The notes beneath the pieces were generated by a model. The model was not told where the DNA came from. It did not search any database and worked only from the letters and a program-made list of their open reading frames with translations. Of a stretch of 64,000 nt of DNA, positions 1-63,731 are shown one piece after another. Every line of letters starts with the position of its first letter. Positions within the stretch are counted from its first letter, which is position 1. This stretch comes from an uncultured Candidatus Saccharibacteria bacterium (GTDB lineage: Bacteria; Patescibacteriota; Saccharimonadia; Saccharimonadales; JBBQAJ01), in contig CAZQHP010000001.1 of the NCBI GenBank assembly GCA_964593805.1, forward strand, positions 91 through 64,090, given 5' to 3'. The translations under genes and the position numbers were made by a program.

Positions 1-1199
1 CCAAAAATCGGGCCAGTGATATCCACATAGAACCCATGGAAAAAGAACTAAAAATTCGCTGCCGGATAGATGGAGTACTGCGTGAAATCATGAAACTGCC
101 CAAAGGTACCGAAGCCGCCCTGGTGTCCCGCGTCAAAATTCTCAGCAATCTAAAAATAGATGAGCACCGCATACCGCAAGACGGCCAGTTTACCGTGCAT
201 GTTGCTGGTAAAGACATTGACCTTCGTATCGCCATTTCTCCGGTGGTGTGGGGCGAACAAATCGTGATTCGTTTGCTGGACAAAACGGGAACCAGTCTCA
301 AGCTGGAGGCTATGGGTTACACGGGGCGCGCTTTGCGGGCGATTCGCAAGGGCCTGGAGCAGCCAAACGGCATGATACTCACTTCTGGCCCAACCGGTTC
401 CGGTAAATCCACCTCTTTGTACGCGCTACTGCAAGAAATCGTCAGTGATGAAATAAACATCGTGACGCTGGAAGACCCGGTTGAATACAAAATGCCAGGC
501 ATAAACCAGATACAAGTAAATCCAGACGTAGGACTGACATTTGCTACCGGGCTGCGGTCTATTCTGCGCCAAGATCCAGACGTAGTAATGGTTGGGGAAA
601 TTCGCGACAAAGAAACCGCGCAACTGGCAGTCCAAGCGGCGCTGACCGGTCACTTGGTATTTTCCACGCTGCACACAAACTCGGCGGCCGGAATTTTGCC
701 GCGTTTGCTTGACATGGGCATAGAACCGTTTCTGATTGCCAGCACCGTACATACCGTGATAGGCCAGCGCTTGGTACGCCGTGTCCGGCAGGACGACGGC
801 AAAAAAAGCTACCAGACAGAAAAGACCGAAACCGAAGCCATACACAGTATTCTTGGCCAACTATTGCCGCAAAAAGCAGCAGACATGGCCGCTGTCGCGG
901 AAGATTTAGGCTACAAATCCTTGCCACTTGCCAATGAAAACGCTTATACTTTATTTGAGGGTGCTGATGGAGCGGAAACACCCGGCGGTTACAAGGGGCG
1001 GATGGGGCTGTATGAAGTTTTTGGCGTTACGGAAGCAATCCAGGAACTGATTTTGAACCATTCAACCAGCGGAGACATCCAAAGAGCCGCCCAGGCCGAG
1101 GGCATGATTACCATGCAGGAAGATGGTTATCTGAAGGCTTTGGCAGGTCTTACTACGCTCAAAGAAGTAAACAGGGTGGCCGCAGCCGACAGCGCATAA
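1..1199 (+). CDS. pilB: Type IV pilus / T2SS assembly ATPase (PilB/GspE family), ATPase core and C-terminus. The 5' end is not in the window and no N-terminal domain is attached on this strand.
   Basis: Translation from nt 3 reads ..KNRASDIHIEP... It continues with Walker A GPTGSGKSTS, Asp box LRQDPDVVMVGEIRD and GHLVFSTLHTN. Stop at 1197-1199. Confidence 0.85.
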   Translation, partial: KNRASDIHIEPMEKELKIRCRIDGVLREIMKLPKGTEAALVSRVKILSNLKIDEHRIPQDGQFTVHVAGKDIDLRIAISPVVWGEQIVIRLLDKTGTSLKLEAMGYTGRALRAIRKGLEQPNGMILTSGPTGSGKSTSLYALLQEIVSDEINIVTLEDPVEYKMPGINQIQVNPDVGLTFATGLRSILRQDPDVVMVGEIRDKETAQLAVQAALTGHLVFSTLHTNSAAGILPRLLDMGIEPFLIASTVHTVIGQRLVRRVRQDDGKKSYQTEKTETEAIHSILGQLLPQKAADMAAVAEDLGYKSLPLANENAYTLFEGADGAETPGGYKGRMGLYEVFGVTEAIQELILNHSTSGDIQRAAQAEGMITMQEDGYLKALAGLTTLKEVNRVAAADSA

Positions 1200-1224
1200 T
1201 AATAAAGGATAGGTGGGTATAAAA

Positions 1225-1857
1225 ATGACAGCCGCACAACCGCGAATCGAAATACTACTGGAAGAAGTTATTAAGAAAAAAGCTTCAGACTTGCACCTAC
1301 AAGTCGGCCTGCCCCCAATGCTTAGGGTTGACGGAGCTTTAGGGCCCGTCACGGGAGCAGAAGCGCTGACCGAAGAGACCATAGAAGCGCTGATTTTTGC
1401 CATTTTAGACGAAGATCAGAAACAAATTTTGCTCAAAGACAAAGAGTTTGACTTTAGTTTTGCGTTTGGAGATCTGGGGCGCTTCCGTGTGAACGCGTTT
1501 CATGAACGCGGAAACTTAGCTGCGGCTTTGCGTTTAATCCCCAACGAAATGCTTACCGTGGAGCAGCTAGGTTTGCCACCCATAGTCAATAAATTTGCCG
1601 AATATCCCAGGGGGCTCGTGCTGGTTACCGGCCCGACCGGCTCTGGCAAATCAACCACGCTGGCGGCCATGATACATAAAATCAACCATGAGCGGGCGTC
1701 GCACATCATAACCATAGAAGATCCCATAGAGTTTACCCATAAAAGCCAAAAATCGGTGATTGTACAGAGGGAAGTGCATTACGACACTTACTCTTTTTCC
1801 GCCGCTCTCAGAAGCAGCTTGCGTGAAGACCCGGACGTGGTGCTGATTGGTGAATCT
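1225..1857 (+). pseudogene. pilT: PilT-type twitching-motility ATPase, N-terminal ~211 codons only (truncated at a rearrangement junction)
   Basis: ATG at 1225 follows a purine-rich RBS. ASDLHLQVG, Walker A GPTGSGKSTT and Asp box REDPDVVLIGE are present. After ~1857 the frame reads through antisense pilB N-domain DNA with no PilT similarity (no MRD, Walker B or His box). Confidence 0.75.
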
Positions 1858-2417
1858 TGCACGATAGTTTTGATGTTTTTGTCTTTATTGGTCTGGATAT
1901 CACCGTCTTTATCTTTTGCTAATTCCTGGCCGGCATCTGAATTTTCAATCGCATCAGCAACGCCTTCGCCCAGGCTAAGCGAATACTGTTTTAGGACTTG
2001 TCGAATTCCTTCTTCGCTAGCGGCATAGACTTTTAGCGGGCGGCCAATTTTGTTGGACAAAAAGTCCACCGCTTGTACATTGTCCGCGTCTAGCATAGCT
2101 ACCACTAGGCGCCGCTGCATTTCTCCTAACGGCACAGCCATGTAGCGTTCGGCTATATCTTGCGGCAAAAGGGCTAAGATGGCGGGGTCAATGGTAGCTT
2201 CCGCTAGATTTACGTAAGGCAGTTTGGTGACGTGAGCGGTGGTTTTGGTAAGTTGTTCGCTAGAAATCAGTTTTTCGTGGACGAGCATTGTAAGCAACGG
2301 AGTTTTTGTTTCAGCGGCCTTGGTTTTATAAGTTTTAAGCTGGTCGTTTGAAATAACGCCGTCTTTTATCAGAGACTCTTCTACCTGTTGTTGGGTGGCC
2401 GCCGATAAAACGCTCAC
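1858..2417 (-). pseudogene. pilB: PilB/GspE N-terminal (T2SSE_N-type) domain fragment, detached from its ATPase core
   Basis: GGAGG-N6-GTG start at 2417. The protein shows a typical PilB N-domain pattern (..LPYVNLAEATIDPAILALLPQDIAERYMAVPL..LVVAMLDADN..) and ends ..KTIVQDSPI at ~1860. The remaining ORF-track residues are antisense to pilT. Confidence 0.7.
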
Positions 2418-2509: not shown

Positions 2510-2761
2510 CTACTGCTTATTAAATGGTTGCTGATTGTTATTGTCGCCAATTCTGATGATTTGAGTGGGGTCTATGGCTTGGACGTTAAAGTATTTGTCG
2601 TCTTTGGCGGGTATCTTAAAGTCGGCAGTAATAGGTTCTACCACTTCTACCTTTTCTTGTCTGTTTTTTGGAGAAGCAAACAAATAGTTAGAAAGCAGCA
2701 AAGAAAATACACCGCTAATGAAAACAACCACCATGATTAAAATTATGTCTTTCTGTTTCAT
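2510..2761 (-). CDS. Small single-pass membrane protein in the pil operon (function unknown)
   Basis: ATG overlaps the pilO-like stop (ATGA). N-terminal TM segment IILIMVVVFISGVFSLLL. No prepilin G/FTLIE motif. Confidence 0.55.
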   Translation of the reverse strand: MKQKDIILIMVVVFISGVFSLLLSNYLFASPKNRQEKVEVVEPITADFKIPAKDDKYFNVQAIDPTQIIRIGDNNNQQPFNKQ

Positions 2762-3429
2762 TGGACTTCCTTAAGAGTAATCTTGACTGTTTTTTGCGGC
2801 TGGTAGTAGCTTTTGGCAGTGACGCTAACGTTCAGCGTGGTATCGGCGCCGCTAAATTCAATTTTTACGATTTGGATGGGTCGAATAGACAGCTGGAAAA
2901 CATCCAGCAAGCCCTGGGCCGCATCAAAATTGCCAGAAATTGTAGTCTCAAACGGGATTTCAACTGGTTGAATAGCTACTTCAGAGGCTTTTGATTGGTT
3001 CAGTTCGTCATCAATGCCAGTTATGGATTGAATTTTATAGTTTCTGGCTGTTAGGATTTTTTCTACGCTGGTTGCCAGCGCCGGGAAATCGTATTTGCTT
3101 GGCAGCGCGTCTAGCACAATTTTGGCGTTGTCGCCGTCACGATCACCGCTGCCCGAAGGCAGGCCGCCGATAATATTATCTGGAGCTGATACAAAAGCCT
3201 TGTAGGAATTTACTAGCTGGTCAGCCGCAATATTATTGGCCTTAAGTTGGGCCAGGGCCTTCTTTTTTTCGGTTATCACACGCGACTGGTAGCTTCGCTG
3301 GCTCAAAAGCGCCCGGCTAGCAACCAACGAAAATACCGCCACAAACGCCGCGACTGCCAGAAATACTACCATGCTGGCGTTGGCTTTATCTATTTGTAGT
3401 CTTTTACTGGAAATAAGTTTGTTGACCAT
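2758..3429 (-). CDS. pilO: PilO-like type IV pilus assembly protein
   Basis: Position after pilM-pilN. N-terminal TM followed by a coiled-coil-like segment. The call rests on synteny and architecture only. Confidence 0.55.
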   Translation of the reverse strand: MVNKLISSKRLQIDKANASMVVFLAVAAFVAVFSLVASRALLSQRSYQSRVITEKKKALAQLKANNIAADQLVNSYKAFVSAPDNIIGGLPSGSGDRDGDNAKIVLDALPSKYDFPALATSVEKILTARNYKIQSITGIDDELNQSKASEVAIQPVEIPFETTISGNFDAAQGLLDVFQLSIRPIQIVKIEFSGADTTLNVSVTAKSYYQPQKTVKITLKEVQ

Positions 3430-3433
3430 AGTA

Positions 3434-4120
3434 CTATTGTGTTTCTTCGTTAGGGTTGCTTAACGGCTGAAAAAGCGCTTCTGGTTTTTCAGTTTCGGAC
3501 CGGGTGGTGATTTTGCCTGGGGGCACGGTAAGTGTCACAGGACTATCATTGGAAAAAATAATCGGGTCATATTTGAAAGAAAGTTCGTAGCTTGCGCCCT
3601 TTTCGTCTCTGCCAAAGCTTGATAAAACAACTTCAGAAAACGCATTGCCTTCTTTGGCAGCATCTGTTTTGTAGGTAGTGAACTTCAACGTGTCGGCGAA
3701 TTTATTTACTGTACTGATAGCATCTGCGGAACCTGTGATTTTTATGGTTTGGGTCGAAAAGTCTATTTCCATAGTCGCTATACTGACTTTGGCTGGCGTT
3801 ACTTGCTTGACGTAGTTTAGTAGACGAGGAGCAACCGGTTTTTGATCATGTAGCGCTGGCAAGCTGGCAAGCTGATTCTGGATGGTCAGAATTTTGTTGA
3901 GATCTGGTGTGTTTTCTAACTTGGCACTTTCTGACTTTATGTCTTTAGACAAATCCGTTGAATACTTTTTCTGCACCAGCTGCACTCCGACAAACAAAAT
4001 CACCATAATTGCTAGTGTAGAGCCGGCAATCAAAACTGCCACCAGAAGTGTCATGCGTTTGTTGCGCCTGGCACGAACGTATTCCAGTTTTATATTTGGT
4101 AGTAAATTAAACTGAATCAT
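3434..4120 (-). CDS. pilN: PilN-type fimbrial assembly protein
   Basis: N-terminus MIQFNLLPN (the conserved INLLP-type PilN motif) followed by a TM segment. ATGA overlap with the pilM stop. Confidence 0.7.
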   Translation of the reverse strand: MIQFNLLPNIKLEYVRARRNKRMTLLVAVLIAGSTLAIMVILFVGVQLVQKKYSTDLSKDIKSESAKLENTPDLNKILTIQNQLASLPALHDQKPVAPRLLNYVKQVTPAKVSIATMEIDFSTQTIKITGSADAISTVNKFADTLKFTTYKTDAAKEGNAFSEVVLSSFGRDEKGASYELSFKYDPIIFSNDSPVTLTVPPGKITTRSETEKPEALFQPLSNPNEETQ

Positions 4121-5160
4121 TCTTGTCTCTCCGCTAGCCCGGCCGCTACGCCAAAGTGGTTAGATAGCGCCAGTAGTTCGTTTTGGCGATCGGCAGAAAA
4201 AGACACATTTCGCCAAGCGTTGCCTATTTCAACGCTAGCGCCGAATTTGTTAGCTATGTACAACGGAAACTCGGGCAAAGCAGATGCGCCGCCCGTTACA
4301 ATAATTCGGTCCAGTTTGGCGTTGTCTCCATAGCGCTTCTGGAAAAACTTTATGGACTTGTCTATTTCTGACATTAGTAAGTCTACTGTGCCAATTATTG
4401 CTTGGTAGATCTGGCCCTCCAGCTTGTCTTTGGACACGCCAAATTTAAATACAAACTGTTCGGCTTGTTTCTGGTCAATGTTTAGGTTTTGCATGGCTGA
4501 TTTTATGATGGCATCGGTACCAGTTGGGATAGAACGCGTCAGGCGTGGCGCGCCGTTCATTGCTACTACCATGTCGGTAGACAAGCTGCCCACGTCCACT
4601 ACCATCTGGGCTGTTGTGGCATCCGGTGCCAGAATTGCCCGGACTAGCGCCAAGTTGTCCGGCTCAAAAGCAATTACATTCAAACCAATTGCTTCCAGCA
4701 TGTCCAGACGTGCTTCCGCGAATTCGTTGCTTACGCTGGTGAGCAGGACCTCTACTTTGTTTTTGTCTGCCGGCGAATCGCCTATCTGAGCCCAATCAAG
4801 CGTGGCGTCCCCGATTGGCGTAGGAATTAGCGATTCGGCTTGGTACTGTATGGTTTTGGCTAGTTCCCCTGGGTCTAATCTGTCAAAATCCGCTACGGTG
4901 GTAAATACGCGCTGCGAAGGTAGACCAACTACAACGTTTCTGGTGGTTATTCGGGCTTGGGAAAGCAATTCTTGGAGATTATCAACCAATTTTTGCTGGT
5001 CTGCCTGCGCGTCAGATTGGGCAATTTTGACATCGATTGGGACGTAACCGTAACGTACCAGGTTTTTTACCGGCCCGCTCCCCTGTAGCTGCACGATTCG
5101 GATAGCAGTAGTGCCAATGTCCAGCCCAAAAAAATCAGATACCCCACTCAGTAGACTCAT
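4117..5160 (-). CDS. pilM: PilM, actin-like ATPase of the type IV pilus assembly platform
   Basis: GLDIGTTAIRIVQL phosphate-1 motif and ..IIVTGGASALPEF.. The ORF-track GTG at 5172 abuts a TATAGT -10 box, so the ATG at 5160 is preferred. Confidence 0.85.
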   Translation of the reverse strand: MSLLSGVSDFFGLDIGTTAIRIVQLQGSGPVKNLVRYGYVPIDVKIAQSDAQADQQKLVDNLQELLSQARITTRNVVVGLPSQRVFTTVADFDRLDPGELAKTIQYQAESLIPTPIGDATLDWAQIGDSPADKNKVEVLLTSVSNEFAEARLDMLEAIGLNVIAFEPDNLALVRAILAPDATTAQMVVDVGSLSTDMVVAMNGAPRLTRSIPTGTDAIIKSAMQNLNIDQKQAEQFVFKFGVSKDKLEGQIYQAIIGTVDLLMSEIDKSIKFFQKRYGDNAKLDRIIVTGGASALPEFPLYIANKFGASVEIGNAWRNVSFSADRQNELLALSNHFGVAAGLAERQE

Positions 5161-5297
5161 AATTGCTTTCACTATACCATAAGCTTTTTACAGTTACCAT
5201 CGTAAAACTATGAGCAGAATTTTCAAATAGCAATTTTCAATTTTCCAGATCGTAGTAGTTAGTTTTCATTGTCTGGTATCTGATATTTGAAAATTGA

Positions 5298-7625
5298 TTA
5301 TAGGATGGGTGGCAAGCTGGTGATGGCATCGTAGCCGGCGTTGCCGCCAGGAGTACAGCTTTCTGATATGGCACACGGTGTTGCCAACCAGGTAGCTGGC
5401 GAGGCGTTGAATGTTTCGGCAGGAGTATTTGCACTCAAAGTGCCAATGCTACGGTAAAGTTTTAATTCCTTTGCAATAAACGCGCCTTTTACGGTAAGCG
5501 TGGATTTGCAAATAGTATTAAGTTCGTTTGTAGCATTTGGTGGCCGCCAAGTATTAGGAAGAAGATCGGGAAACGCGCAGGTGTAAATCTTCCCTCTGTT
5601 GCCCGCACTATCCGGTTGTGCCACGTACACGCCGTCCAATTGCGAAACTCCGGGTGCAATGTATATATTACCCTTTACCACTAGGTAGAAATTGGGCATA
5701 TCGTCAATGGTTGTAGCTCCACCAGCAAGCTTTATATTTCCCGCTATGTAAGCATCGCCGTTGACATAAATTATCGGACGTTTTCCTAATGCTATCGGCG
5801 GAGTTCCAAACGGTGTTGTTATAGTTAGCGCACCATTTGAAAACCATGCCGTTTTAGTATCGATTGTCCCAGATGCGATTGTTAATACTATGGGATCGGG
5901 AGTAACGTTCTTGAGTGTGTCGTAATAATCAGTAGGGCACGGTATTATGCCATCCGCCAAGGAACCCCCAAACAATGACCCAAAAAGAATCGTATTTGCA
6001 AAACTAAGACCAATTGGGGGAGAAGGATTTGTACGATTTTGGGCACTCGCTATGCCGTTTATTAAACCCCGTGAAAATGTAGCAAGATTGGTACCTGCAC
6101 CTATATTCGGATTTGTTACTTGATTCCAAGATGTCAATACTGGACTAGCTATCCCAGCTCCCCAGCCAGTACAGCCCGCAATCGGAATACCAGCGGCTAC
6201 ATCCCCGTTTCTGGCTATAAAGAAAGGTTTGCTGACGACATTAAAACTAACCGTGCCCGGACAAGAAATGGATCCAGCGTTGCCGCCGCTAACATTCCAG
6301 TCAATCGTATAGGTGCCGGCAGTATTGGCAACTATGGAACCCGACGTAACGTTTACGCTTGAACCTCCCGCAATATCCGGTATGGTAATGTTTGACTGCG
6401 GCGAACCAGAGGTAGGCAGAGGCGAAACCGTCAAACTAGCTTTACCGCCGGTGTATGTCACGGCAGTACTGGGTGAGTTGCTTATGTTCACTGTACTAGT
6501 GAAAGCCTGGCCAATTTCCGGCGACGATGGACTTATACTCACAAGATTACAACTTACGGTAGGCGCTGGGGGTGGGGGCGTACAGTTCTGATCAAAGTTA
6601 ATACTATCGTATGGCAGCTGGAACTGTATGCCATTCCGGCTTTTTACGCCTAAAAGCTCCCATTCGTACCGTTTGCCTGGTTGTACGGTAATTGTTTTGC
6701 TGTCCGCAACTCCATTACCTCCTGTCAGCGGCCAAAAATTTACAGGCGTTCTGACCCCGGTAGATGAAACTTCATATAGAATTGTGGCTATTGTGTTTGG
6801 ATTGCCACTTGTGTCGGTCTGGTTGCTTACGCCAGCATCGGCATCAAACCATGAAATATCAACTGGAGTAGGAACTTTTACGCTACACGAAGGAGCAAAC
6901 TGCAAACGCATATCTGCCCAACGGTCTGGGTCTAGCCACAACTGACCCAGCGCGAACTTATTGGTAGAACCGGCATAATAACTCAGTTTGTCTTGTGCTT
7001 GGGCAGTTATACTAAAACCATTGATACCATTCACAAACCCGTTATTTTGAGCTCGAATATAAGCAACGCGGTAGCCCTCATGCCCGGGAACAGCTGAAGG
7101 TGTTAAGCTACTCATGTTTAAGGTAATGGTGGGATCTCTGTAAACACTTGGGTTTGGATTATTGCAGTCTAATCCAGCGTTTCCAAAAAATGTCAGTGGC
7201 GCCGACATGGCTTCACTTGATGCTGCAGAACCTGCCGTTGCAGAAAAGAAAATAAATGCCGTATCTGGAAATTCCCTGGGCGCCCCGGCCAGGCTATCTA
7301 TATTCACACCCGGCGGAGAAAAGTTGTTTGGACACCAAGCCGCGTTGTTTATGCGAACTGTCACTTGTGATCGGCCATCGTCTTTTACAAAAAGCTTCAC
7401 GGTGGCTTCCGGCGCATCCAGCGCGTAATTGGCTCCAGCAGCCGCAACTGAAAGATACACATCGCCAACCTGAGTTGACGTCCCTATGTTTGTAAATTGC
7501 CCCGAGGGCACGTCTGGTAGTTTATTTGTAGCGGCTGATGCTTTGGACCCGGGGATAAACAAAAACGTAGTCACAAAAAAAGCCAAAAACAAAGTGTAGC
7601 GTTGGTATTTTTTAGGCAAAATCAT
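5298..7625 (-). CDS. Large secreted protein (775 aa), Gly/Asn/Thr/Ser-rich, pilus-operon associated; function unknown
   Basis: Signal-peptide-like N-terminus (..LFLAFFVTTFLFIPGSKASA). Start abuts the stop of the upstream TPR gene. It lies directly upstream of pilM. Confidence 0.7.
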   Translation of the reverse strand: MILPKKYQRYTLFLAFFVTTFLFIPGSKASAATNKLPDVPSGQFTNIGTSTQVGDVYLSVAAAGANYALDAPEATVKLFVKDDGRSQVTVRINNAAWCPNNFSPPGVNIDSLAGAPREFPDTAFIFFSATAGSAASSEAMSAPLTFFGNAGLDCNNPNPSVYRDPTITLNMSSLTPSAVPGHEGYRVAYIRAQNNGFVNGINGFSITAQAQDKLSYYAGSTNKFALGQLWLDPDRWADMRLQFAPSCSVKVPTPVDISWFDADAGVSNQTDTSGNPNTIATILYEVSSTGVRTPVNFWPLTGGNGVADSKTITVQPGKRYEWELLGVKSRNGIQFQLPYDSINFDQNCTPPPPAPTVSCNLVSISPSSPEIGQAFTSTVNISNSPSTAVTYTGGKASLTVSPLPTSGSPQSNITIPDIAGGSSVNVTSGSIVANTAGTYTIDWNVSGGNAGSISCPGTVSFNVVSKPFFIARNGDVAAGIPIAGCTGWGAGIASPVLTSWNQVTNPNIGAGTNLATFSRGLINGIASAQNRTNPSPPIGLSFANTILFGSLFGGSLADGIIPCPTDYYDTLKNVTPDPIVLTIASGTIDTKTAWFSNGALTITTPFGTPPIALGKRPIIYVNGDAYIAGNIKLAGGATTIDDMPNFYLVVKGNIYIAPGVSQLDGVYVAQPDSAGNRGKIYTCAFPDLLPNTWRPPNATNELNTICKSTLTVKGAFIAKELKLYRSIGTLSANTPAETFNASPATWLATPCAISESCTPGGNAGYDAITSLPPIL

Positions 7626-9889: not shown

Positions 9890-11455
9890 ATGAATCGCAA
9901 GCTTGCAAAGTTTCGGTATCAAATCTCAGCACTAAGCGGCCTGGCAGCCGGGGGAGTTTTCTCGTTTGGCTTACCATCAGTATTGCTACCCCTGTTTATA
10001 CTTCCCTATTTTTTGATTTTTGTTGCATCTCCTAAGATCCTGAATTTAAAACAAAGCCTGAAATTTTCAGGTTTGTTTTTTTTCAGCTTTTTTCTTGTAG
10101 TTCTGGGCTGGTTTCTTGAGGTTGACGCGACCTTGCTGGCTGGACTCGATGAAAAATATGCCGGGCTATTTCTTGCCCTCTGTTTGGTTATTATGGCTGT
10201 GGTGCTGGCACTGGCGTGTCTTCCCATGGGGTACGTGCTGTACAAACTTCAAAGTCGGCTTAAAACACCTTCGCTGAAAACCGCAGCCATACTAGCCAGC
10301 GCCTGGGTCGTTCTAGAATGGTTCCGAAGCGTGGTGTTTGCGGCTTTTCTGTATGCGCCCGGTGCGAGTATTGGAGACTACTGGAACTTTGGAAGTTTGG
10401 GTCTGGGTTTAATATCCAGCCCGGCGGGATATTTGAGCAGAATCATAGGTATGTACGGCTTAAGCGCGCTTGCAGTTGTATGCTCGATATCTTTGGCTTG
10501 GGCTTTGGGGAAACGCTATAAGCCGCTTGTCTGGGTTCTGGTCTTCACGTTCATAGGCAGTCTGGCAAGCTATTCACTTATCACGCCAGAAAATACCAGC
10601 CAACCACTTAAAGCGAGCGTACTGCAACGAGAGGGCTTATACACTGATCTGGACGGGCCTTCAGCTGCTATAAAATACAAAGACGATTCCCCAAAAGCCC
10701 TAATAGTCCTCAGCGAATATTCAGCTGTCCATATAGCTGGCAATGAAGCCTTTTCCAAAAGATACGTGGAGAATCGACTGAGCGAAGATGGAGTAAGTAT
10801 AGACTTGTCCGCGGATTTCATATCTAAACCCCGTTATAGCCTGCTTGAAGCACGCAGTAGCAAAGGAGAAATCATTGACCTTCAAACGAAACAATTACTC
10901 ATACCGACCGGCGAATATTTACCAGGCATCCTCCAGCTGTTTTATAAACTAACTGCCCAGAACCGTATCAACGACTCGTTCGCGGATACCAGACAACTTC
11001 TGCGCGGGCAACCGCCACACCCCATTTACACCAAGCACGTCACTATAGCGCCTGTGGCTTGTTCGGGAATCTTGGGCAGAAATATATACCGGCAACTAGT
11101 AAATGATGGCGGCGAAGTGCTGACAAACAGCGCTTCTCTACTAATTTTTAGCGGCTCTGAATCATATTTTAGGCAATCTTTACAGATGGCTAGATTTCAC
11201 GCCATTGCCAATGACCGCACCTATATCCAGGCTTCGATGGGCGCGCCGGCTTTCGCAATCGATAATAAAGGAAATTACATAGTCGCACCGGAAGGCAAAA
11301 AGACAACCTTTATTGACTTCGAATTTCAACCCAACGACTACAAAACTGTTTATACGCGTTTTGGCGAGTGGCCGTTGCTTCTTAGCGGCACGGTCATGGC
11401 AGTCCTAGCTCTAGCCCGAGTCAATCAAAGTCTCAAAAATCGTCGAAAATCTTGA
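9890..11455 (+). CDS. lnt: Apolipoprotein N-acyltransferase-like protein (polytopic membrane domain plus CN-hydrolase domain)
   Basis: Multiple N-terminal TM segments. Candidate E-K-C triad contexts: ..VLSEYS.., ..TKQLLIPTGEYLPG.. (compare K..LVPFGE in Lnt), ..APVACSG.. Confidence 0.6.
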   Translation: MNRKLAKFRYQISALSGLAAGGVFSFGLPSVLLPLFILPYFLIFVASPKILNLKQSLKFSGLFFFSFFLVVLGWFLEVDATLLAGLDEKYAGLFLALCLVIMAVVLALACLPMGYVLYKLQSRLKTPSLKTAAILASAWVVLEWFRSVVFAAFLYAPGASIGDYWNFGSLGLGLISSPAGYLSRIIGMYGLSALAVVCSISLAWALGKRYKPLVWVLVFTFIGSLASYSLITPENTSQPLKASVLQREGLYTDLDGPSAAIKYKDDSPKALIVLSEYSAVHIAGNEAFSKRYVENRLSEDGVSIDLSADFISKPRYSLLEARSSKGEIIDLQTKQLLIPTGEYLPGILQLFYKLTAQNRINDSFADTRQLLRGQPPHPIYTKHVTIAPVACSGILGRNIYRQLVNDGGEVLTNSASLLIFSGSESYFRQSLQMARFHAIANDRTYIQASMGAPAFAIDNKGNYIVAPEGKKTTFIDFEFQPNDYKTVYTRFGEWPLLLSGTVMAVLALARVNQSLKNRRKS

Positions 11456-11476
11456 CCTCTGTTACAATACTCTAAT

Positions 11477-12568
11477 ATGAGTTTATCAATCGGGATTGTC
11501 GGGTTGCCAAATGTCGGTAAGTCTACGCTGTTTAATGCGCTGACAGACGGTGATATTCTGGCTGCCAATTATCCTTTTGCAACCATTGAACCAAATACTG
11601 GCATTGTGCCCATACCAGACGAACGGCTGCAAAAACTGGCAGATGTATACAAGACAAAAAACATCGTCCCCGCGACGGTTACATTTGTAGACATTGCCGG
11701 CCTGGTTGCCGGCGCCAGCCAAGGCGAAGGCCTGGGCAACCAATTTCTAGCAAATATTCGTAGTTGCAATGCCGTCTGCCATGTTGTCCGAGCTTTTACG
11801 GACGATAATGTCCTGCATGTTGACGCCAAACATAATCCTCAGAAAGATATCGAGGTTATTAATACCGAGCTGGCGCTCGCGGACCTCCAGACCGTAGAAA
11901 AACGCTTGCCCCAAAGCGAAAAAATGGCCAAAGCTGACCCCAAACTCAAGCCCCAGGTAGATGCACTTCTCTGGGCACGAGATATCCTAAACGACAGCGT
12001 GCCTTTATTTGCAGCTCCCTCACGACTTGCAGCTCACGACTTGCTTCTTCAGGAGCTTCAGCTCCTGACGGCAAAGCCGACTATATATTTATTTAACGTA
12101 GATGAAGAAACGCTGGCCGATGACGCCAAAAAATCTCAGCTGGCTCAGCTAGTCGCACCTGCGGAAGCAGTTTTTGTCTGTGCAAAGTTAGAAAGCGAAC
12201 TAAAAAGCCTGGACACTGCAGACCGCGTAGAATTGCTAGGCAGCTATGGGGTTCAAGAATCCGGGCTGGTCCAATTAACCCACGCCGCCTACGATACGCT
12301 CGGCCTGCAGAGTTTTCTGACTGCCGGCGAAAAAGAAGTCCGGGCCTGGACAATCCCAAAAAGTGCAACCGCTCCGCAAGCCGCCGGCGTAATTCATGGC
12401 GATTTTGAGCGCGGCTTTATAGCCGCCCAAATTGTAGATTATGATGACCTGATAACGGCTGGTTCAGAAGCGGCCGCTAGGAGCTCTGGCAAAGTACGCA
12501 CCGAAGGCAAAGATTACGCAATGCGCCCCAACGATGTAGTAGAATTCCGTTTCAACGTATCAAAATAG
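11477..12568 (+). CDS. ychF: Ribosome-binding ATPase YchF
   Basis: GIVGLPNVGKSTLFNALT P-loop, ..VDIAGLV.GAS.GEGLGN.FL.., and a C-terminal TGS-like ..DFERGFI.A.. Confidence 0.95.
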   Translation: MSLSIGIVGLPNVGKSTLFNALTDGDILAANYPFATIEPNTGIVPIPDERLQKLADVYKTKNIVPATVTFVDIAGLVAGASQGEGLGNQFLANIRSCNAVCHVVRAFTDDNVLHVDAKHNPQKDIEVINTELALADLQTVEKRLPQSEKMAKADPKLKPQVDALLWARDILNDSVPLFAAPSRLAAHDLLLQELQLLTAKPTIYLFNVDEETLADDAKKSQLAQLVAPAEAVFVCAKLESELKSLDTADRVELLGSYGVQESGLVQLTHAAYDTLGLQSFLTAGEKEVRAWTIPKSATAPQAAGVIHGDFERGFIAAQIVDYDDLITAGSEAAARSSGKVRTEGKDYAMRPNDVVEFRFNVSK

Positions 12569-12620
12569 CTGTTAGCTGTTAGCTGTTAGCTGTTAGCTGT
12601 TAGCTGTTAGCTGTTAGCTA
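12567..12620. repeat. Tandem heptanucleotide array (AGCTGTT) x7.7 filling the whole convergent intergenic spacer
   Basis: Direct reading. The array begins within the ychF TAG stop and ends 2 nt before the stop of the convergent gene at 12623. Confidence 0.97.
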
Positions 12621-12622
12621 CA

Positions 12623-13297
12623 TTATAGTTTTACAGTTACGGAATTTATATCCCAGTTCATGCTGATGTTGCGGATAATTTTTAGAGCGTCATTGTGTCC
12701 CGGTATGTTGTTTTCTTCGTAGTAATGGTCGCTTTCCATCAAATTTTCCGTTACGCTCAGGCAATAAATTTCGTCTCCAACTAAATGCATCCGGTCCACG
12801 GCATTTATGCTGGCTATCGGCGTGGCTATTATAAGTTTTTTAACCTTGGTCGGTTTTAGAAAGTCGGCGGCGACTTCCAGCGAAACACCACTCTGAAGCG
12901 CGTCAGAAACCAATATAACTACATGGTGCCTCAAAAATTTGGGATCTATTTCTCCCCCGTCGCTTAACAGTTTGTTGAGTTCATGAAATTTCTCAACCCG
13001 CTGGTCTTCAATCATGCCGTGATATTCGCTGACAAACTCGTCTATTTCCCCCTGGGAAAGTTTTTGGTTATAGGTAAGGGTGTTGGTGGTCATAGAAGCA
13101 AGCGGTTCGGTTTCGCCTGGCAGGATTATATTGTCGCTCAAAAGTACCATAAGGTTGGCGTGCAGCCGCATGGCAATCTGCGCGCCTACCAGCACCCCGC
13201 CGCTGTTAAGCGCCACCACTGCGCATTGTTCGCTTTTGTATCTTTTTAGCTTCAGCGCCAATTGGCGCCCGGCCTCGGCCCGATTTTTGAAATACAT
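12623..13297 (-). CDS. Phosphoribosyltransferase-family protein
   Basis: MYFKNRAEAGRQLALKL..AVVALNSGGVLVGAQIA.. matches the putative-PRTase pattern. The ATG at 13297 sits 6 nt after a TATAAT box. Confidence 0.65.
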   Translation of the reverse strand: MYFKNRAEAGRQLALKLKRYKSEQCAVVALNSGGVLVGAQIAMRLHANLMVLLSDNIILPGETEPLASMTTNTLTYNQKLSQGEIDEFVSEYHGMIEDQRVEKFHELNKLLSDGGEIDPKFLRHHVVILVSDALQSGVSLEVAADFLKPTKVKKLIIATPIASINAVDRMHLVGDEIYCLSVTENLMESDHYYEENNIPGHNDALKIIRNISMNWDINSVTVKL

Positions 13298-16023: not shown

Positions 16024-16058
16024 AGCTATCAGCTGTCAGCTGTCAGCTCTTAGCTAGT
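16024..16058. repeat. Degenerate tandem heptamer array (AGCTNTC-like) x5
   Basis: agctatc agctgtc agctgtc agctctt agctagt, between the ssb stop and the efp start. Confidence 0.9.
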
Positions 16059-26894: not shown

Positions 26895-27614
26895 TGTTTT
26901 GGAGAAATCTATCTCTGTTGGTGACTGTGCATATGATACGTCAAATTCGCCTACTTGGGTGCGGCGGAGGGCGGTCATGTAGGCGCTAGTTCCTAGTTCT
27001 TTGCCTATATCTTCTACCAAACTGCGGATATACGTGCCGGAAGAAACTTTGGCGGTGAATTTCACCTCTGGATATGCATAATCCACATCAGAAATGCTGT
27101 AAATCGTCACCCTTCGAGGCTCAAGCACCACTTCTTTGCCCTCTCTGGCTAATTTGTAAGCCCGTTGGCCATTTACTTTGACGGCGCTGAACTTGTGCGG
27201 CGTTTGCATGATTTCGCCCTGGAACGACCCCAAGACTGCCATAAAAGCTTTTTCTGATGGTTTTTCACCAGATACAATGGTCTTTTCACCCTCTTCATCG
27301 CCAGTTGTGCTGGTTTGGCCCAGTTTCATAGTCACTTCGTATACTTTGTCTAGTTTGCTAAACTCATGCGCCCGTTTGCAGTAACTGCCAAGGAGAATTA
27401 CCAAAAGTCCGGTTGCGAGCGGATCCAGAGTGCCGGCGTGGCCAACCTTCACCTTCCGTGAAGGAGTACTGAGTCGAGAGTCCTGAGTCGAGAGTTTTTC
27501 GCTCCGTACTCCGTACTCTGTACTCTGTGACTGGCGCAAAAGTCCCCTGACTTTTGCGACTACGTCAAACGACGTCCAGCCAGACGGCTTATCAATCAGT
27601 AAAATTCCATCCAC
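26880..27614 (-). CDS. truB: tRNA pseudouridine-55 synthase TruB, with a repeat-encoded insertion
   Basis: GTG start. GILLIDKPSGWTSFDVV.. and catalytic ..GHAGTLDPLATGLLVILLG. An extra ~21-24 aa lies between these motifs. Confidence 0.92.
   Translation of the reverse strand: MDGILLIDKPSGWTSFDVVAKVRGLLRQSQSTEYGVRSEKLSTQDSRLSTPSRKVKVGHAGTLDPLATGLLVILLGSYCKRAHEFSKLDKVYEVTMKLGQTSTTGDEEGEKTIVSGEKPSEKAFMAVLGSFQGEIMQTPHKFSAVKVNGQRAYKLAREGKEVVLEPRRVTIYSISDVDYAYPEVKFTAKVSSGTYIRSLVEDIGKELGTSAYMTALRRTQVGEFDVSYAQSPTEIDFSKTLTNK
27469..27531. repeat. 7-nt-periodic tract inside truB (9 units, 63 nt)
   Basis: ctgagtc gagagtc ctgagtc gagagtt tttcgct ccgtact ccgtact ctgtact ctgtgac. It encodes ..SQSTEYGVRSEKLSTQDSRLS.. 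Confidence 0.9.
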
Positions 27615-29834: not shown

Positions 29835-29860
29835 GCTTTTTATAAGACCAGTGTCGCAAC

Positions 29861-30325
29861 GCACGCTTCGCTCGCTTAAACCATACTTTTTGGTCAGCAA
29901 AAAGTAAGCAAAAACTGACGCCATGGGCTGCGAAACGTGACTGAATCATCTACCATGCATATGAGGCGCCAGCAGAATAGCGACTTCGTAGTTCTTTGGG
30001 ATTACTCACGTATGCTGCTGGCTCTACTCCTCATATACCTGAGATGATGCAATCAGTTTCTTGAATGGCGGGAACAAGCAGAGCCCCGCAAGCGAGCCAA
30101 ATCTATAATCCGCCGGAGGCGGATACCTTGGAGGCTTCTCAGACTCTGGAGGTTCCTGAAAAGCGTAGTGTCAAAGCTACCATTTGAGAGAGGAGTCCAC
30201 CGCGGCGGACGACGAGCATGGTAGCGCTTGACGACGAAGCTTATCAAGAACTGGAAGGGCTGTCATTTCTTTGGTTACTTTCTTGTTGACACAAGAAAGT
30301 AACTCAGCAACTGAGCCGAACGCGC
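29861..30325. ncRNA. Copy A of a two-copy ~465-nt non-coding, helix-rich element (candidate structured RNA or non-autonomous mobile element; class unknown, strand undetermined)
   Basis: Aligns with 45531-46005 in conserved blocks separated by non-homologous but self-complementary segments. No conserved ORF. It lies between the convergent rpsT and holA stops. Confidence 0.55.
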
Positions 30326-31252: not shown

Positions 31253-32161
31253 TCACGCCTTTTGGCATTTGGGGCAAGTGTGGGTGCCGCGGCCGGCTAC
31301 TCGAGTCTTTGTAATTATTGTACCGCAGCGTGGACACTCTTGACCCTCACGGCGGAATACACGCGCAAAACTGAGGTAGCTGCCCTTTTTGCCTTCCGCA
31401 TTCACATAATTTCTATCTGTTGAACCGCCTTTTGCTATAGCTAGATTTAGGACAAATTGAAGTTTGGTAAATAATTTGTATATTTTGACTTTGGAAAGAT
31501 TTTTTACCAATGTAGCCGGGTGGATTTTGGCGTCCCATAGGCTTTCGTCGGCGTATATATTGCCTACGCCCGCTATCACGGTTTGGTCCAAAAGTGCGGC
31601 TTTAATATTTGTATTCGGCCGGCGTAAAAGCCGCTCCTGAAAGGCTTTTTTGGTAAAATCAGCAGCCAATGGCTCGGGTCCAACGCGTCTAAAAAAGTCT
31701 ATGTTTGGCACCTCGATGGTGGGCAAAAGTTTCATCCAGCCAAATTTGCGCTGGTCGTTGAAGAAAAGTTCGGAGCCGTCTGTGAAGGTAATAATTACCC
31801 TAGTTGATTTGTCGGGTAAGCCTCCGACCAAAGATTCACTCGGGTGTCCAGCCCCAAACCTTTCTTCAGCTGTCAGCTGTCCGCTACTAGCTGTTAGCTT
31901 GTGCGCTTCGCGCACATAAACCATTTGTCCGGTCATTTTGAGATGACTCACGAGTGTGTGTCCGGAAGACAAATCAATGAGCAATATTTTTGCACGCCGC
32001 CGGACACCAATGATTTTGGAACCCACCAAAAACGCCTTTACGTCCGCCTCAGCGTTTGGAAATGATTTGGCCCAGTCGTGCGTAATGCCAGCAATGGCCT
32101 TACCAATAACAAATTTATTTAGTCCTGTTCGGACCGTTTCAACCTCAGGTAGTTCTGGCAT
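31253..32161 (-). CDS. mutM: Formamidopyrimidine-DNA glycosylase (Fpg/MutM), with a repeat-encoded insertion
   Basis: MPELPEVETVR N-terminus, H2TH region, and C-terminal zinc finger CPRCG...CPKCQ. Confidence 0.93.
   Translation of the reverse strand: MPELPEVETVRTGLNKFVIGKAIAGITHDWAKSFPNAEADVKAFLVGSKIIGVRRRAKILLIDLSSGHTLVSHLKMTGQMVYVREAHKLTASSGQLTAEERFGAGHPSESLVGGLPDKSTRVIITFTDGSELFFNDQRKFGWMKLLPTIEVPNIDFFRRVGPEPLAADFTKKAFQERLLRRPNTNIKAALLDQTVIAGVGNIYADESLWDAKIHPATLVKNLSKVKIYKLFTKLQFVLNLAIAKGGSTDRNYVNAEGKKGSYLSFARVFRREGQECPRCGTIITKTRVAGRGTHTCPKCQKA
31867..31901. repeat. Tandem heptamers inside mutM
   Basis: cagctgt cagctgt ccgctac tagctgt tagcttg. It encodes ..HKLTASSGQLTAE.. Confidence 0.9.
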
Positions 32162-45519: not shown

Positions 45520-45530
45520 AACCTCTTAGC

Positions 45531-46005
45531 GCACACCTCGCTTGCTTAAACCATACTTTTTGGTCAGCAAAAAGTATGCAAAAACTGACGCCATGGGCCG
45601 CGAAACATGATTGTCCCCATAACCAGCCAACTGCTGCGCCGAAACGACTAAAGGCCCAAACTTTTATTTGGGATCAGTTTGGACGAGTTCCGGCTTGATT
45701 CAGCAGTTGTCTGAATGAGTGCATCAGTTTCTTGAATGGCGGGAACAAGCAGAGTCCCGCACCGCGGGACAAATTAAATAATCCGCCTATGGCGGATGCC
45801 ATGGTCTTGTTCAGGCTCTGGAAGTTCCTGATGACGGAGTTGTTAAAACTACCATTAGAGTGAGGAGTCCGCCGCGGCGGATGACGAGTATGGTGGTTTT
45901 GACAATGGAGACATCAAGAACTGGAAGTGGCTGTCGCTCTTTTTGCATACTTTTTCTTCGACAAGAAAAAGTATGGCGGGAAGTCCGCTGTGGCGGACGC
46001 CGAAA
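45531..46005. ncRNA. Copy B of the two-copy ~465-nt non-coding helix-rich element
   Basis: Homologous blocks shared with 29861-30325. It lies between the convergent stops of the 44815 gene and the yjbR-like gene. It has terminal hairpins with identical stems, CATACTTTTT/AAAAAGTATG. Confidence 0.55.
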
Positions 46006-62651: not shown

Positions 62652-63731
62652 ATGATAATTCTTGGCATAGAAACCAGCTGTGATGAAACGGCTTGCGGGA
62701 TTGTGCAGAACGGCAAAAAACTTTTGGCAAATGCAGTGCTTTCCAGCATGGATTTGCATGCCGTATACGGCGGCGTAGTCCCGGAAATCGCCGCCAGAAG
62801 CCACATTGAAGCGATTATCCCTGTTATTCAGCAAGCTTTAGGGCAAGCAAACTGTACTTGGGACGACATTGACGGAATTGCGGTAACCTACGGTGCTGGG
62901 CTGGGCGGTTGCCTGCTGGTGGGCGTCATGACCGCCCGCACGCTGGCAATTGCCAAAAACAAGCCCATGTACGCCGTCAACCACGTTGAAGCGCACGCTT
63001 ATGCCAACTTCCTAACGGAAGTAGCTAACAGCTTACAGCTGACAGCTGACAGCTATAAATTACCGCATTCCGCACCTTCCTTTCCCATGTTAGGGCTAAT
63101 AGTCAGTGGCGGGCATTCGCAGCTGGTCCTCTGGCGCAATCACTTTGATTACACCTTGCTAGGGCAAACGCAAGACGACGCTATAGGTGAAGCGTTCGAC
63201 AAAGTCGCCAAAATACTTGGTCTCCCCTACCCTGGCGGCCCCAGTCTGGAGACATTTGCCAAAAACGGCGACCCAAATGCCTTTAGTTTCCCCAAAGCCA
63301 AGATGAGCAACAGATACGACTACTCATTTAGCGGCATCAAAACAGCCGTTTTGCGCGCTGCCCAGAAATTAATAGGTGAAAACCACGACTTCCCTTCCCA
63401 TAAGCTTTCAGAACGGCTCTCAGAGGCTCAGAAAGCAGACATTGCGGCCAGCTTCCAGCGTGTGGCCGTGGAAACAGTAGTAGACAAGACGTTACAGGCC
63501 TATGAGGAGTTCAATCCACGAAGCGTTGTCATCGGCGGCGGCGTAGCCGCCAGCCCGGAACTTCGCCGCCAATTAGCCGAACGCCTTCCCATCCCTATCG
63601 AATATACAGACATGAAACTATGCACCGACAACGGCGCCATGATAGCCACCCTCGGCTGCTTCAAAGCTATGAATAATCAAGAAAAAGCCGACCCCTACTC
63701 TCTAGAAATCGCCCCAAATTTATCAATGTAA
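62652..63731 (+). CDS. tsaD: tRNA N6-adenosine threonylcarbamoyltransferase TsaD, with a repeat-encoded insertion
   Basis: MIILGIETSCDETA.. and ..NHVEAH...VSGGHS.. The ATG at 62652 lies 7 nt after TATACT. Confidence 0.93.
   Translation: MIILGIETSCDETACGIVQNGKKLLANAVLSSMDLHAVYGGVVPEIAARSHIEAIIPVIQQALGQANCTWDDIDGIAVTYGAGLGGCLLVGVMTARTLAIAKNKPMYAVNHVEAHAYANFLTEVANSLQLTADSYKLPHSAPSFPMLGLIVSGGHSQLVLWRNHFDYTLLGQTQDDAIGEAFDKVAKILGLPYPGGPSLETFAKNGDPNAFSFPKAKMSNRYDYSFSGIKTAVLRAAQKLIGENHDFPSHKLSERLSEAQKADIAASFQRVAVETVVDKTLQAYEEFNPRSVVIGGGVAASPELRRQLAERLPIPIEYTDMKLCTDNGAMIATLGCFKAMNNQEKADPYSLEIAPNLSM
63021..63055. repeat. Tandem heptamers (ACAGCTG-type) x5 inside tsaD
   Basis: gtagcta acagctt acagctg acagctg acagcta. 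It encodes ..VANSLQLTADSY.. between the HxxxH region and the VSGGHS motif. Confidence 0.92.

Follow-up and report, generated by a model that had tools for sequence, protein, structure and literature searches.

An inverted 1.88-kb segment splits the pilB and pilT genes near a probable contig end in a Saccharibacteria assembly and is most likely a wrong join rather than a pilus switch

The window analyzed here (64,000 nucleotides of DNA from an uncultured Candidatus Saccharibacteria bacterium) opens with parts of the genes for the two type IV pilus ATPases PilB and PilT, which are arranged in opposite orientations. The 3' part of pilB occupies positions 1-1199 on the plus strand (frame 3, stop codon at 1197-1199) and is thus inverted as compared to the remaining pil operon. 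Positions 3-1199 represent codons 204-601 of a 601-aa PilB and encode a T2SSE ATPase domain (Pfam PF00437, E 5e-119, profile positions 21-370 of 370) which also matches positions 195-562 of the TIGR02538 profile, in agreement with an earlier note on this sequence that had placed the continuation of PilB here. The 5' part of pilT follows on the same strand (1225-1854), with codons 1-210, i.e., from Walker A through the Walker B strand (...DPDVVLIGE). The pilT reading frame remains open to position 2028, with the match to PilT confined to residues 8-210 and followed by 57 unrelated residues (1855-2028); these represent a meaningless read-through tail that is antisense of the 5' part of pilB. No family match was found past residue 210, and no protein carrying this tail was among the matches listed in a search of 5.8 billion sequences. 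With TIGR01420, the reading frame scored 279 bits (profile positions 2-203 of 343) against a cut-off of 319, without the His box and C-terminal domain of a full-length PilT or PilU. The earlier observation that similarity to PilT persists through Walker A and VVLIGE and is then lost is thus accurate; the accompanying statement that MRD, Walker B and the His box are absent applies to MRD and the His box, but not to Walker B, as DVVLIGE210, the Walker B strand with the catalytic Glu, is retained.

The 5' part of pilB is located on the minus strand (2417-1846) and comprises codons 1-191, including the MshEN N-domain (PF05157, E 1e-15), with a GTG start at 2417 and a GGAGG at 2424-2428. The corresponding reading frame (2417-1788, minus strand) shows the GGAGG-N6-GTG start that had been described previously as well as similarity to PilB up to residue ~192, and closes with 18 aa and a stop codon (1788-1845) that are antisense of pilT, for a total of 209 aa. 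Hence, the MshEN and T2SSE domains, which are expected in one PilB polypeptide, are found on opposite strands in the window. Next to this gene part, an undisturbed stretch of the operon on the minus strand (2510-5172) contains an 83-aa ORF (2510-2761), a pilO-like gene (2758-3429), a pilN-like gene (3434-4120) and pilM (4117-5160). All assemblies share this stretch with 100% identity and in collinear order, and PF11104 (PilM_2) appears in its gene maps, consistent with the minus-strand assignment of pilM, pilN and pilO in the earlier note.

The two orientations are joined at a 9-nt common sequence, ATTGGTGAA (1846-1854), over which the BLAST segments overlap by exactly 9 nt (11/12 positions if one mismatch is allowed). 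Within pilT, ATTGGTGAA represents codons I208-G209-E210, and its reverse complement, TTCACCAAT, lies within codons D188-I191 of pilB; the native copies are found at positions 12561-12569 and 10672-10680 of the intact locus L001. The three gene parts in the window, i.e., the pilB 3' part, the pilT 5' part and the pilB 5' part, show 100% identity to L001 positions 10716-11914, 11940-12569 and 10109-10680, respectively. As an arbitrary join would be expected to share 9 nt only about once in 10^5 cases, the junction is not a random break. An origin through a transposon or insertion sequence was rejected, as no extra sequence or target duplication is present and the sequence is fully explained by the two pieces.

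The strain is also represented in two independent assemblies. Logan contig SRR8863434_111652 (from run SRR8863434 of BioProject PRJNA512237, Ohio groundwater; assembled with k=31) and ENA contig ERZ27284378 k139_508325 (776,748 bp; a MEGAHIT-style assembly) both show 100% identity to the window, with 0 substitutions over about 62 kb. In both, the operon pilMNO-pilB (601 aa)-pilT (356 aa)-pilC is intact and collinear, and both cross the two breakpoints without a contig break, so that the join seen in the window is absent from these independent assemblies. The native gene order is pilM-N-O, the 83-aa ORF, pilB, pilT, pilC, pilin and pilD, all on a single strand. The native PilT of the strain matches TIGR01420 with 485 bits (positions 2-341) and has PilT structures as its best PDB matches. 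The native PilB is one 601-aa protein with both domains and has TIGR02538 as its best family match (532 bits, with an equivalog cut-off of 676 that it does not reach). As these assemblies are identical in sequence and yet intact, the window holds a 1.88-kb segment (1,880 bp) that is inverted relative to the native operon with zero divergence, as the earlier note had proposed for a segment carrying the pilB 3' and pilT 5' parts. The scenario of two pilB paralogues, which was raised as a possible refutation, can be dismissed, as the two parts are the halves of a single native 601-aa gene minus 35 nt. In Logan, the strain was recovered from run SRR8863434 only, so the reads behind the window were probably ones from which two other assemblers recovered the native order as dominant.

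The intact genes place pilB codons 192-203 (35 nt) and a copy of the repeat directly upstream of window position 1. The second breakpoint is therefore predicted 35-44 nt upstream, compatible with the 50 nt estimated before; for a randomly placed window, the chance of a start only 35 nt from this predicted breakpoint is ~7e-4. The predicted reciprocal junction, GGTTTCCAGGTCGCGCAT-TTCACCAAT-TAGTAAAGCGCTTTCGGC (also given with TAGTAAAGCGCTTTCGGCAATTTTGGACTACGCTGCCAAAAATCGG as the 3' flank), would join the minus-strand 3' part of pilT to pilB codons 192-203. The provenance of the encoded proteins, the sizes of the contigs and about 3.1 kb of missing sequence indicate where the source contig may end. 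The exact sequence of the 209-aa PilB N-terminal product (P0168; MSVLSAATQQ...RAAEKE) occurs only in an NCBI record from a 773,622-bp contig, from which the window appears to derive, while intact PilB and PilT of the strain were found in Logan and ENA only. The listed neighbors on both sides, with the exception of pilD, occur in NCBI as well, and the gene-call forms of pilO and of a 92-aa ORF that are labelled NCBI are also those in ENA (204 and 92 aa, respectively). For the 773,622-bp contig, we found no record of a pilB 3' product (398 or 387 aa), of 100%-identical PilB or PilT C-terminal fragments or of an extended PilB C-terminal form, which fits a gene that is cut by the contig edge. The 275-aa PilD of the ENA assembly has no copy in NCBI, and no complete pilD was found on the 773,622-bp contig; a 259-aa PilD with an NCBI source belongs to another contig (41,741 bp), and this second NCBI assembly likewise has no intact pilT. 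Relative to the ENA genome, the 773,622-bp contig is short by ~3.0-3.15 kb, and a gap of ~3.1 kb, if it began at the pilT breakpoint, would finish inside pilD. Overall, these data suggest a contig with its start at or close to window position 1 and its other end in pilD; it appears to be without the pilT 3' part, pilC, pilin and part of pilD. If the contig does start at window position 1, one abnormal junction would be on record and its reciprocal would be absent.

These observations also bear on the idea that the inversion is a fixed lesion, i.e., that all cells of the source population carry the inverted segment and have lost type IV pilus function. The source record does show the inverted junction only, and the NCBI records of the strain are without intact PilB and PilT. 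A clean inversion would, however, be assembled across both junctions, whereas this contig seems to break off 35 nt from the second one, with the region from the pilT 3' part through pilD apparently missing. Together with the zero substitutions relative to the intact assemblies and the dominance of the native order in the sole Logan run with the strain, this makes a fixed lesion, one of the options in the earlier note, very unlikely.

We consider it probable that a minority or chimeric junction was attached at the contig end. An assembly path from pilO into pilB would have departed from the true sequence at TTCACCAAT (pilB codons 188-191), resumed on the opposite strand at the complementary ATTGGTGAA in pilT (codons 208-210) and run backwards through the pilT 5' and pilB 3' parts; it would have stopped 35 nt short of re-entering sequence already used, and this stop would be where the contig begins, at window position 1. 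The assembler may have attached such a minority path at the contig end on the basis of few junction-bearing reads, which could be template-switch chimeras or derive from a rare variant molecule. A purely in-silico join was rejected, as no assembler uses a k anywhere near an overlap of 9 nt (11/12 with one mismatch), and a k-mer assembler could not create a join from so little; some reads must thus carry the junction. One detail does not fit this artefact: traversal of a de Bruijn graph predicts that the contig would continue through the 35 nt and ~k-1 nt more, whereas the inferred contig start lies 35 nt short. Nevertheless, with two independent assemblies intact and no reciprocal junction on record, the mis-join option of the earlier note, extended to a minority junction, is the one we favor, and the split of pilB and pilT is not the normal state of the organism and most likely not a genomic feature.

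The junction reads are compatible with in-vitro chimeras and with a genuine rare allele alike, and nothing distinguishes between the two. We therefore also weighed a very recent inversion allele present in part of the natural population, in which the 9-bp inverted repeats would have served as sites of illegitimate recombination or of template switching during replication, so that 1,880 bp were flipped and the ATPases for both extension and retraction of the pilus were inactivated in one sub-lineage. Pressure from pilus-specific phages may have favored this, and the assembler would then have mixed the minority form into the contig end. A junction located exactly on a 9-nt inverted microhomology is a signature of short-homology rearrangement, junction reads must exist, and a graph that holds both orientations would produce the contig breaks at either end of the segment. 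Moreover, natural loss of pilT function is known in Saccharibacteria (see below), and the absence of intact pilT from the second NCBI assembly means that the locus could be truly heterogeneous in the reads. On the other hand, the Logan and MEGAHIT-style assemblies cross the breakpoints unbranched, and such an allele would hence be a small minority in the run; the reciprocal junction is not on record, and an inversion leaves the loss of ~3.1 kb beside the segment from the source contig unexplained. The type IV pilus is thought to be essential for the contact of the episymbiont with its host, and the loss of both motors should be costly. RecA-independent inversions between short inverted repeats were reportedly described in E. 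coli by Schofield et al. in 1992; like the arrangement found here, they have very short inverted repeats as bounds and involve no mobile element or recombinase, but they arose under selection in the laboratory and both of their junctions were demonstrated, whereas one junction is recorded here and the native form dominates. Overall, we regard a genuine minority allele as the main rival, possible but less likely.

A programmed phase-variable inverton, in which a site-specific recombinase acting on two repeats would switch the pilus motors ON and OFF, was another option of the earlier note. Both orientations of the segment do exist among assemblies of one strain, and a XerD-like tyrosine recombinase is encoded ~6 kb beyond pilT. 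This recombinase, however, clusters with proteins named XerD, i.e., housekeeping enzymes, and no other recombinase or invertase was found in Pfam gene maps that cover most of the window (~17.6-59.1 kb and 1.8-22.6 kb) and ~9 kb past pilT; no dedicated invertase thus adjoins the element. Specific inverted repeats at both ends (typically over 10-30 bp, or a core site) were not found either. The inverted 9-nt match at the breakpoints, for which the earlier note had suggested a search, is present, but it is no longer than chance predicts: inverted 9-mer matches between pilB and pilT numbered 7, including a longer 10-mer, with 7.3 expected, and a search for extended or enriched repeats at the breakpoints found none. 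The sequences flanking the repeat match at 23/80 positions, as is expected at random. The repeat sits within codons of conserved protein motifs and is not kept in an oral relative (L014), where the corresponding sequences, TTCACCGAT and ATTGGTGAG, are complementary at only 7/9 positions. Every PilB and PilT homologue listed for N-terminal and whole-gene queries has its full length (~600 and ~355 aa, respectively), and the split pilT genes that were examined have other causes (see below); neither the repeat nor invertibility thus appears conserved in the relatives examined. The known pilus invertons (fimS/FimBE of E. coli, Piv of Moraxella, the R64 shufflon and intragenic ones) likewise present a pilus-locus segment in two orientations, but their repeats are longer and conserved, they are served by dedicated recombinases, and their inversion switches a promoter or exchanges coding variants, whereas the "OFF" state here destroys two ATPase genes and swaps no variants. 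A programmed switch is therefore extremely improbable, and we find it hardly credible that the 1.88-kb flip is real and recurrent and gives reversible ON/OFF pilus heterogeneity without a dedicated invertase.

With regard to the favored junction at the contig end, multiple displacement amplification (MDA) chimeras, reportedly described by Lasken and Stockwell in 2007, are an example of inverted chimeras formed by in-vitro template switching, which can take place while DNA is amplified or a library is prepared. The junction resembles these in being inverted, with partner sites at most a few kb apart and a microhomology in the range of a few to ~10 nt, but the source study used plain Illumina shotgun libraries without MDA (PMC6730927). 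As the 1.88-kb span exceeds an Illumina insert, a chimera could only have formed between molecules or before fragmentation. Local errors, errors in repeat number and termination at ambiguous points are on record for short-read metagenome assemblers, in particular IDBA-UD, the assembler of the original study (PMC7111523; PMC6730927). In line with such errors (Chen et al. 2020, Genome Res, PMC7111523), the join is located 1.85 kb from the inferred contig end, is not reproduced by other assemblers on the strain, and is accompanied by a discrepancy in repeat copy number (heptamer array, 12566-12619) and ~3 kb of missing sequence. The documented errors are, however, mostly unsupported consensus, wrong repeat numbers and spurious Ns, whereas an inverted join as clean as this one, at a microhomology of 9 nt, would not arise without reads behind it.

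Taken at face value, the record describes a near-complete Saccharibacteria genome annotated without both type IV pilus motors; as the same strain has pilB and pilT intact, this would mislead inference on its episymbiont lifestyle. Such errors can be recognized without reads, from identical sibling assemblies, the provenance of exact proteins and a break at the contig edge. If the inversion were true, with both junctions at appreciable depth, it would represent a naturally occurring allele with both pilus motors knocked out. A recurrent flip, if true, would disable extension and retraction of the pilus at once in some of the cells and create reversible ON/OFF heterogeneity of an organelle that a groundwater Saccharibacterium needs for host contact.

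Many 146-aa PilT fragments starting with MRD are present in public data. A recurrent inversion was rejected as their cause, as seven contigs inspected show other causes. Frameshifts in pilT were found in two contigs of 1-2x coverage (L012 and L016); in two others, pilT is split by a local duplication (L013) or cut by the contig edge (L018). One of the seven (L017) shows an inverted chimera at a contig end inside pilT, with a 6-nt overlap and at a different position; it is comparable to the join in the window and speaks for the favored reading. The remaining two, L014 and L015, are independent oral assemblies that both carry an in-frame TAG at pilT codon 195; pilT loss-of-function alleles thus do occur naturally in Saccharibacteria.

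The open reading frames that the earlier note had described at the start of the window (pilB 3' part, pilT 5' part, PilB N-terminal domain and minus-strand pil genes) were all reproduced by the ORF listing and family scans. On the plus strand, the ATPase region of a protein of the PilB/GspE type (3-1199; PF00437, E 5e-119, profile 21-370; TIGR02538 positions 195-562) is followed by a truncated PilT ORF (1225-2028; TIGR01420 positions 2-203 of 343) in which the PilT match is confined to residues 8-210, with 279 bits on TIGR01420 against a cut-off of 319. This ORF ends in a 57-residue tail beyond the PilT-like region; no protein bearing the tail was found among the matches listed from a search of 5.8 billion sequences. 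On the minus strand, a PilB N-terminal ORF with an MshEN domain (2417-1788; GGAGG-N6-GTG start) shows PilB similarity to approx. residue 192, and pilM, pilN-like and pilO-like genes and an 83-aa ORF stand next to it (ORF listing and gene map). The truncated PilT lacks the MRD motif, His box and C-terminal domain. The earlier report of lost PilT motifs was correct for MRD and the His box but not for Walker B, as DVVLIGE210, the Walker B strand with the catalytic Glu, is retained.

Exact look-up of the pilO-like protein and of a 775-aa neighbour protein retrieved, respectively, Logan contig SRR8863434_111652 (L001; 24.5 kb) and ENA contig ERZ27284378 k139_508325 (776,748 bp), both from the same strain. 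Both carry, on a single strand, pilM-N-O, the 83-aa ORF, pilB (601 aa), pilT (356 aa), pilC, pilin, pilD and minor pilins. By BLAST, window 1846-12525 matches L001 10680-1 in reverse orientation and window 1-1854 matches L001 10716-12569 in the same orientation, both with 100% identity, and the remaining window is identical to the ENA contig to at least 59146; beyond this, the window and the ENA contig differ only in the copy number of a heptamer array near 12566-12619, by 21 nt. Because the native contigs are collinear and the two perfect matches are oppositely oriented, the segment from pilB codon 191 to pilT codon 208 is, as the earlier note had proposed, inverted in the window relative to the native genome; there are zero substitutions. 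The 775-aa ORF (5298-7625, minus strand) lies directly upstream of pilM and has a hydrophobic N-terminus; it has no Pfam or NCBIfam match, its 90% cluster consists of this strain alone, and it may encode a lineage-specific surface or pilus-associated protein.

The two alignments share 9 nt, ATTGGTGAA (window 1846-1854), with one copy in pilT (I208-G209-E210) and its complement in pilB (D188-I191). The shortness of this repeat speaks against a programmed phase switch of the pilus motors, one of the meanings suggested earlier, which we regard as extremely improbable. The 40 nt flanking each side of the repeat match at 23 of 80 positions, as in random sequence; seven inverted 9-mer matches were observed between pilB and pilT (7.3 expected), one of which reaches 10 nt; and an oral Saccharibacteria relative shares the protein motifs but not the DNA repeat. 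No invertase was found in the Pfam-annotated gene maps (window approx. 17.6-59.1 kb and 1.8-22.6 kb; approx. 9 kb past pilT), where the lone recombinase is a XerD-like gene approx. 6 kb beyond pilT. No testable feature of a programmed switch was found.

The window starts 35 nt inside the inverted segment, so the second breakpoint had been correctly predicted to lie just upstream; for a window internal to its contig, a start so close to the predicted breakpoint (35 nt) would have a probability of approx. 7e-4. The provenance of the proteins was also informative. The truncated 209-aa PilB N-terminal product has an NCBI record, a 773,622-bp contig, as its sole source, while the strain's intact PilB and PilT come from Logan and ENA only. 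All neighbours listed on either side carry the NCBI label too in the forms looked up, with the exception of pilD: its 275-aa ENA form lacks an NCBI counterpart, and an NCBI-sourced 259-aa form lies on another contig of 41,741 bp, from a second NCBI assembly likewise without an intact pilT. For two ORFs called at different lengths in ENA and Logan (pilO, 204 vs. 223 aa; another ORF, 92 vs. 97 aa), the NCBI label follows the ENA form. In the protein collection, the 773,622-bp contig is represented by no pilB 3' product and no 100%-identical PilB or PilT C-terminal fragment, as expected if the contig edge cuts the pilB 3' part and the pilT 3' part is absent. Compared with the ENA genome, this contig is short by approx. 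3.0-3.15 kb, a gap that, if it begins at the pilT breakpoint, ends within pilD. Taken together, provenance, gap and the improbable coincidence point to a contig that starts at window position 1 or close to it, has its opposite end in pilD, and is missing the pilT 3' part, pilC and pilin; the record would therefore contain one abnormal junction rather than two.

SRR8863434 belongs to BioProject PRJNA512237 (Illumina HiSeq shotgun metagenomes, Ohio groundwater), data first assembled with IDBA-UD, binned into MAGs and deposited at NCBI; the study does not mention whole-genome amplification. Within Logan, the strain was recovered from this run only. Its genome of approx. 0.78 Mb and its PilB and PilT relatives, labelled Candidatus Saccharimonadales or Saccharibacteria, mark it as a groundwater Saccharibacterium. 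As two other assemblers pass through both breakpoints unbroken, the native order was dominant in the reads most probably behind the source contig. Junction-bearing reads must nevertheless exist, since every assembler works with a k far larger than a 9-nt overlap; template-switch chimeras or a rare variant molecule could be their source. With moderate confidence, we favor a minority inverted junction attached at the contig end, after which the assembly path would have run backward via the pilT 5' and pilB 3' parts and halted shortly before re-entering already used sequence. Such assemblers are documented to make local errors, to misjudge repeat numbers and to terminate contigs where the path is ambiguous (PMC7111523). 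A simple de Bruijn traversal would have carried the contig past the repeat (k-1 nt beyond), yet its indicated start falls 35 nt short. A genuine low-frequency inversion allele, formed by microhomology-mediated recombination, would give the same junction and could account for contig breaks at both segment ends, and apparently natural pilT nonsense alleles occur in oral Saccharibacteria; we consider it possible but rather unlikely. A fixed lesion fits poorly with both the zero divergence and the break at the second breakpoint and is very doubtful. Among the three meanings offered previously, a mis-join or minority junction is thus preferred over lesion or switch: compared with the native operon there is a true inversion, but it most likely exists at the level of the assembly or of a minority rather than as the genome's actual state.

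Seven unrelated public contigs were inspected for split pilT. One, L017 (ERZ989837, k127_208795, human oral metagenome; 1-410), has an analogous contig-end inverted join within pilT: its first 354 nt are an inverted pilT copy (L014 5599-5952) that meets forward sequence (from L014 5891) across a 6-nt overlap. Its two arms show a few base differences, as though from two strains, and the contig represents an inverted chimera at a contig end, affecting the same gene family as the pilT described here. In L014 (ERZ27248079 k119_20351) and L015 (ERZ28585126 scaffold_538), two independent assemblies, an in-frame TAG at pilT codon 195 (5371-6441; TTG in L012, L013 and L016) yields 194-aa and 146-aa ORFs and looks like a natural nonsense allele of a human-oral strain. 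L013 (GCA_900091285.1, FLSK01000973.1, oral; 980-2328) carries pilT residues approx. 201-275 twice in tandem (980-1804 and 1861-2328), which reflects a local event, either duplication or misassembly. Recurrent inversion at the same site was ruled out as the source of the many public 146-aa PilT C-terminal fragments, which in these seven contigs stem from the in-frame TAG, low-coverage frameshifts, local duplication, contig edges and the one inverted chimera, located elsewhere in the gene.

Heptamer arrays with GCTG-containing units were found at 2452-2484, 12566-12619, 16024-16056, 27464-27525, 31866-31885 and 63023-63054, the GCTG core being common to several units (CCGCTGA, TAGCTGT, AGCTGTC, TCAGCTG, AGCTGAC); arrays of other units lie at 38043-72 (CCTTGCT) and 50944-69 (GACTTTG), and L001 has a tandem heptanucleotide array at 13013-13046. 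All three gene-checked arrays are intergenic (2452-2484, which adjoins pilB upstream, 12566-12619 and 16024-16056). The array at 12566-12619 has 7.7 copies in the window and three fewer in the ENA assembly, either because the copy number truly varies or because an assembly has the wrong number of repeats; the Logan contig stops just short of it. Across the whole 64-kb window, neither tRNA genes nor Rfam families at the gathering threshold were found. A noncoding element of approx. 440 nt occurs as direct intergenic copies at 29860-30301 and 45530-45973, 15.7 kb apart, with 75% identity by BLAST and 84% in a MAFFT alignment in which conserved and variable blocks alternate; it lacks a convincing ORF and matches nothing in Rfam, even at E<=1. 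RNAalifold predicted 119 pairs from the two copies, 17 of them with both partners changed, most of one long hairpin among them. The element is a candidate for an undescribed structured RNA, two sequences being too few for certainty.
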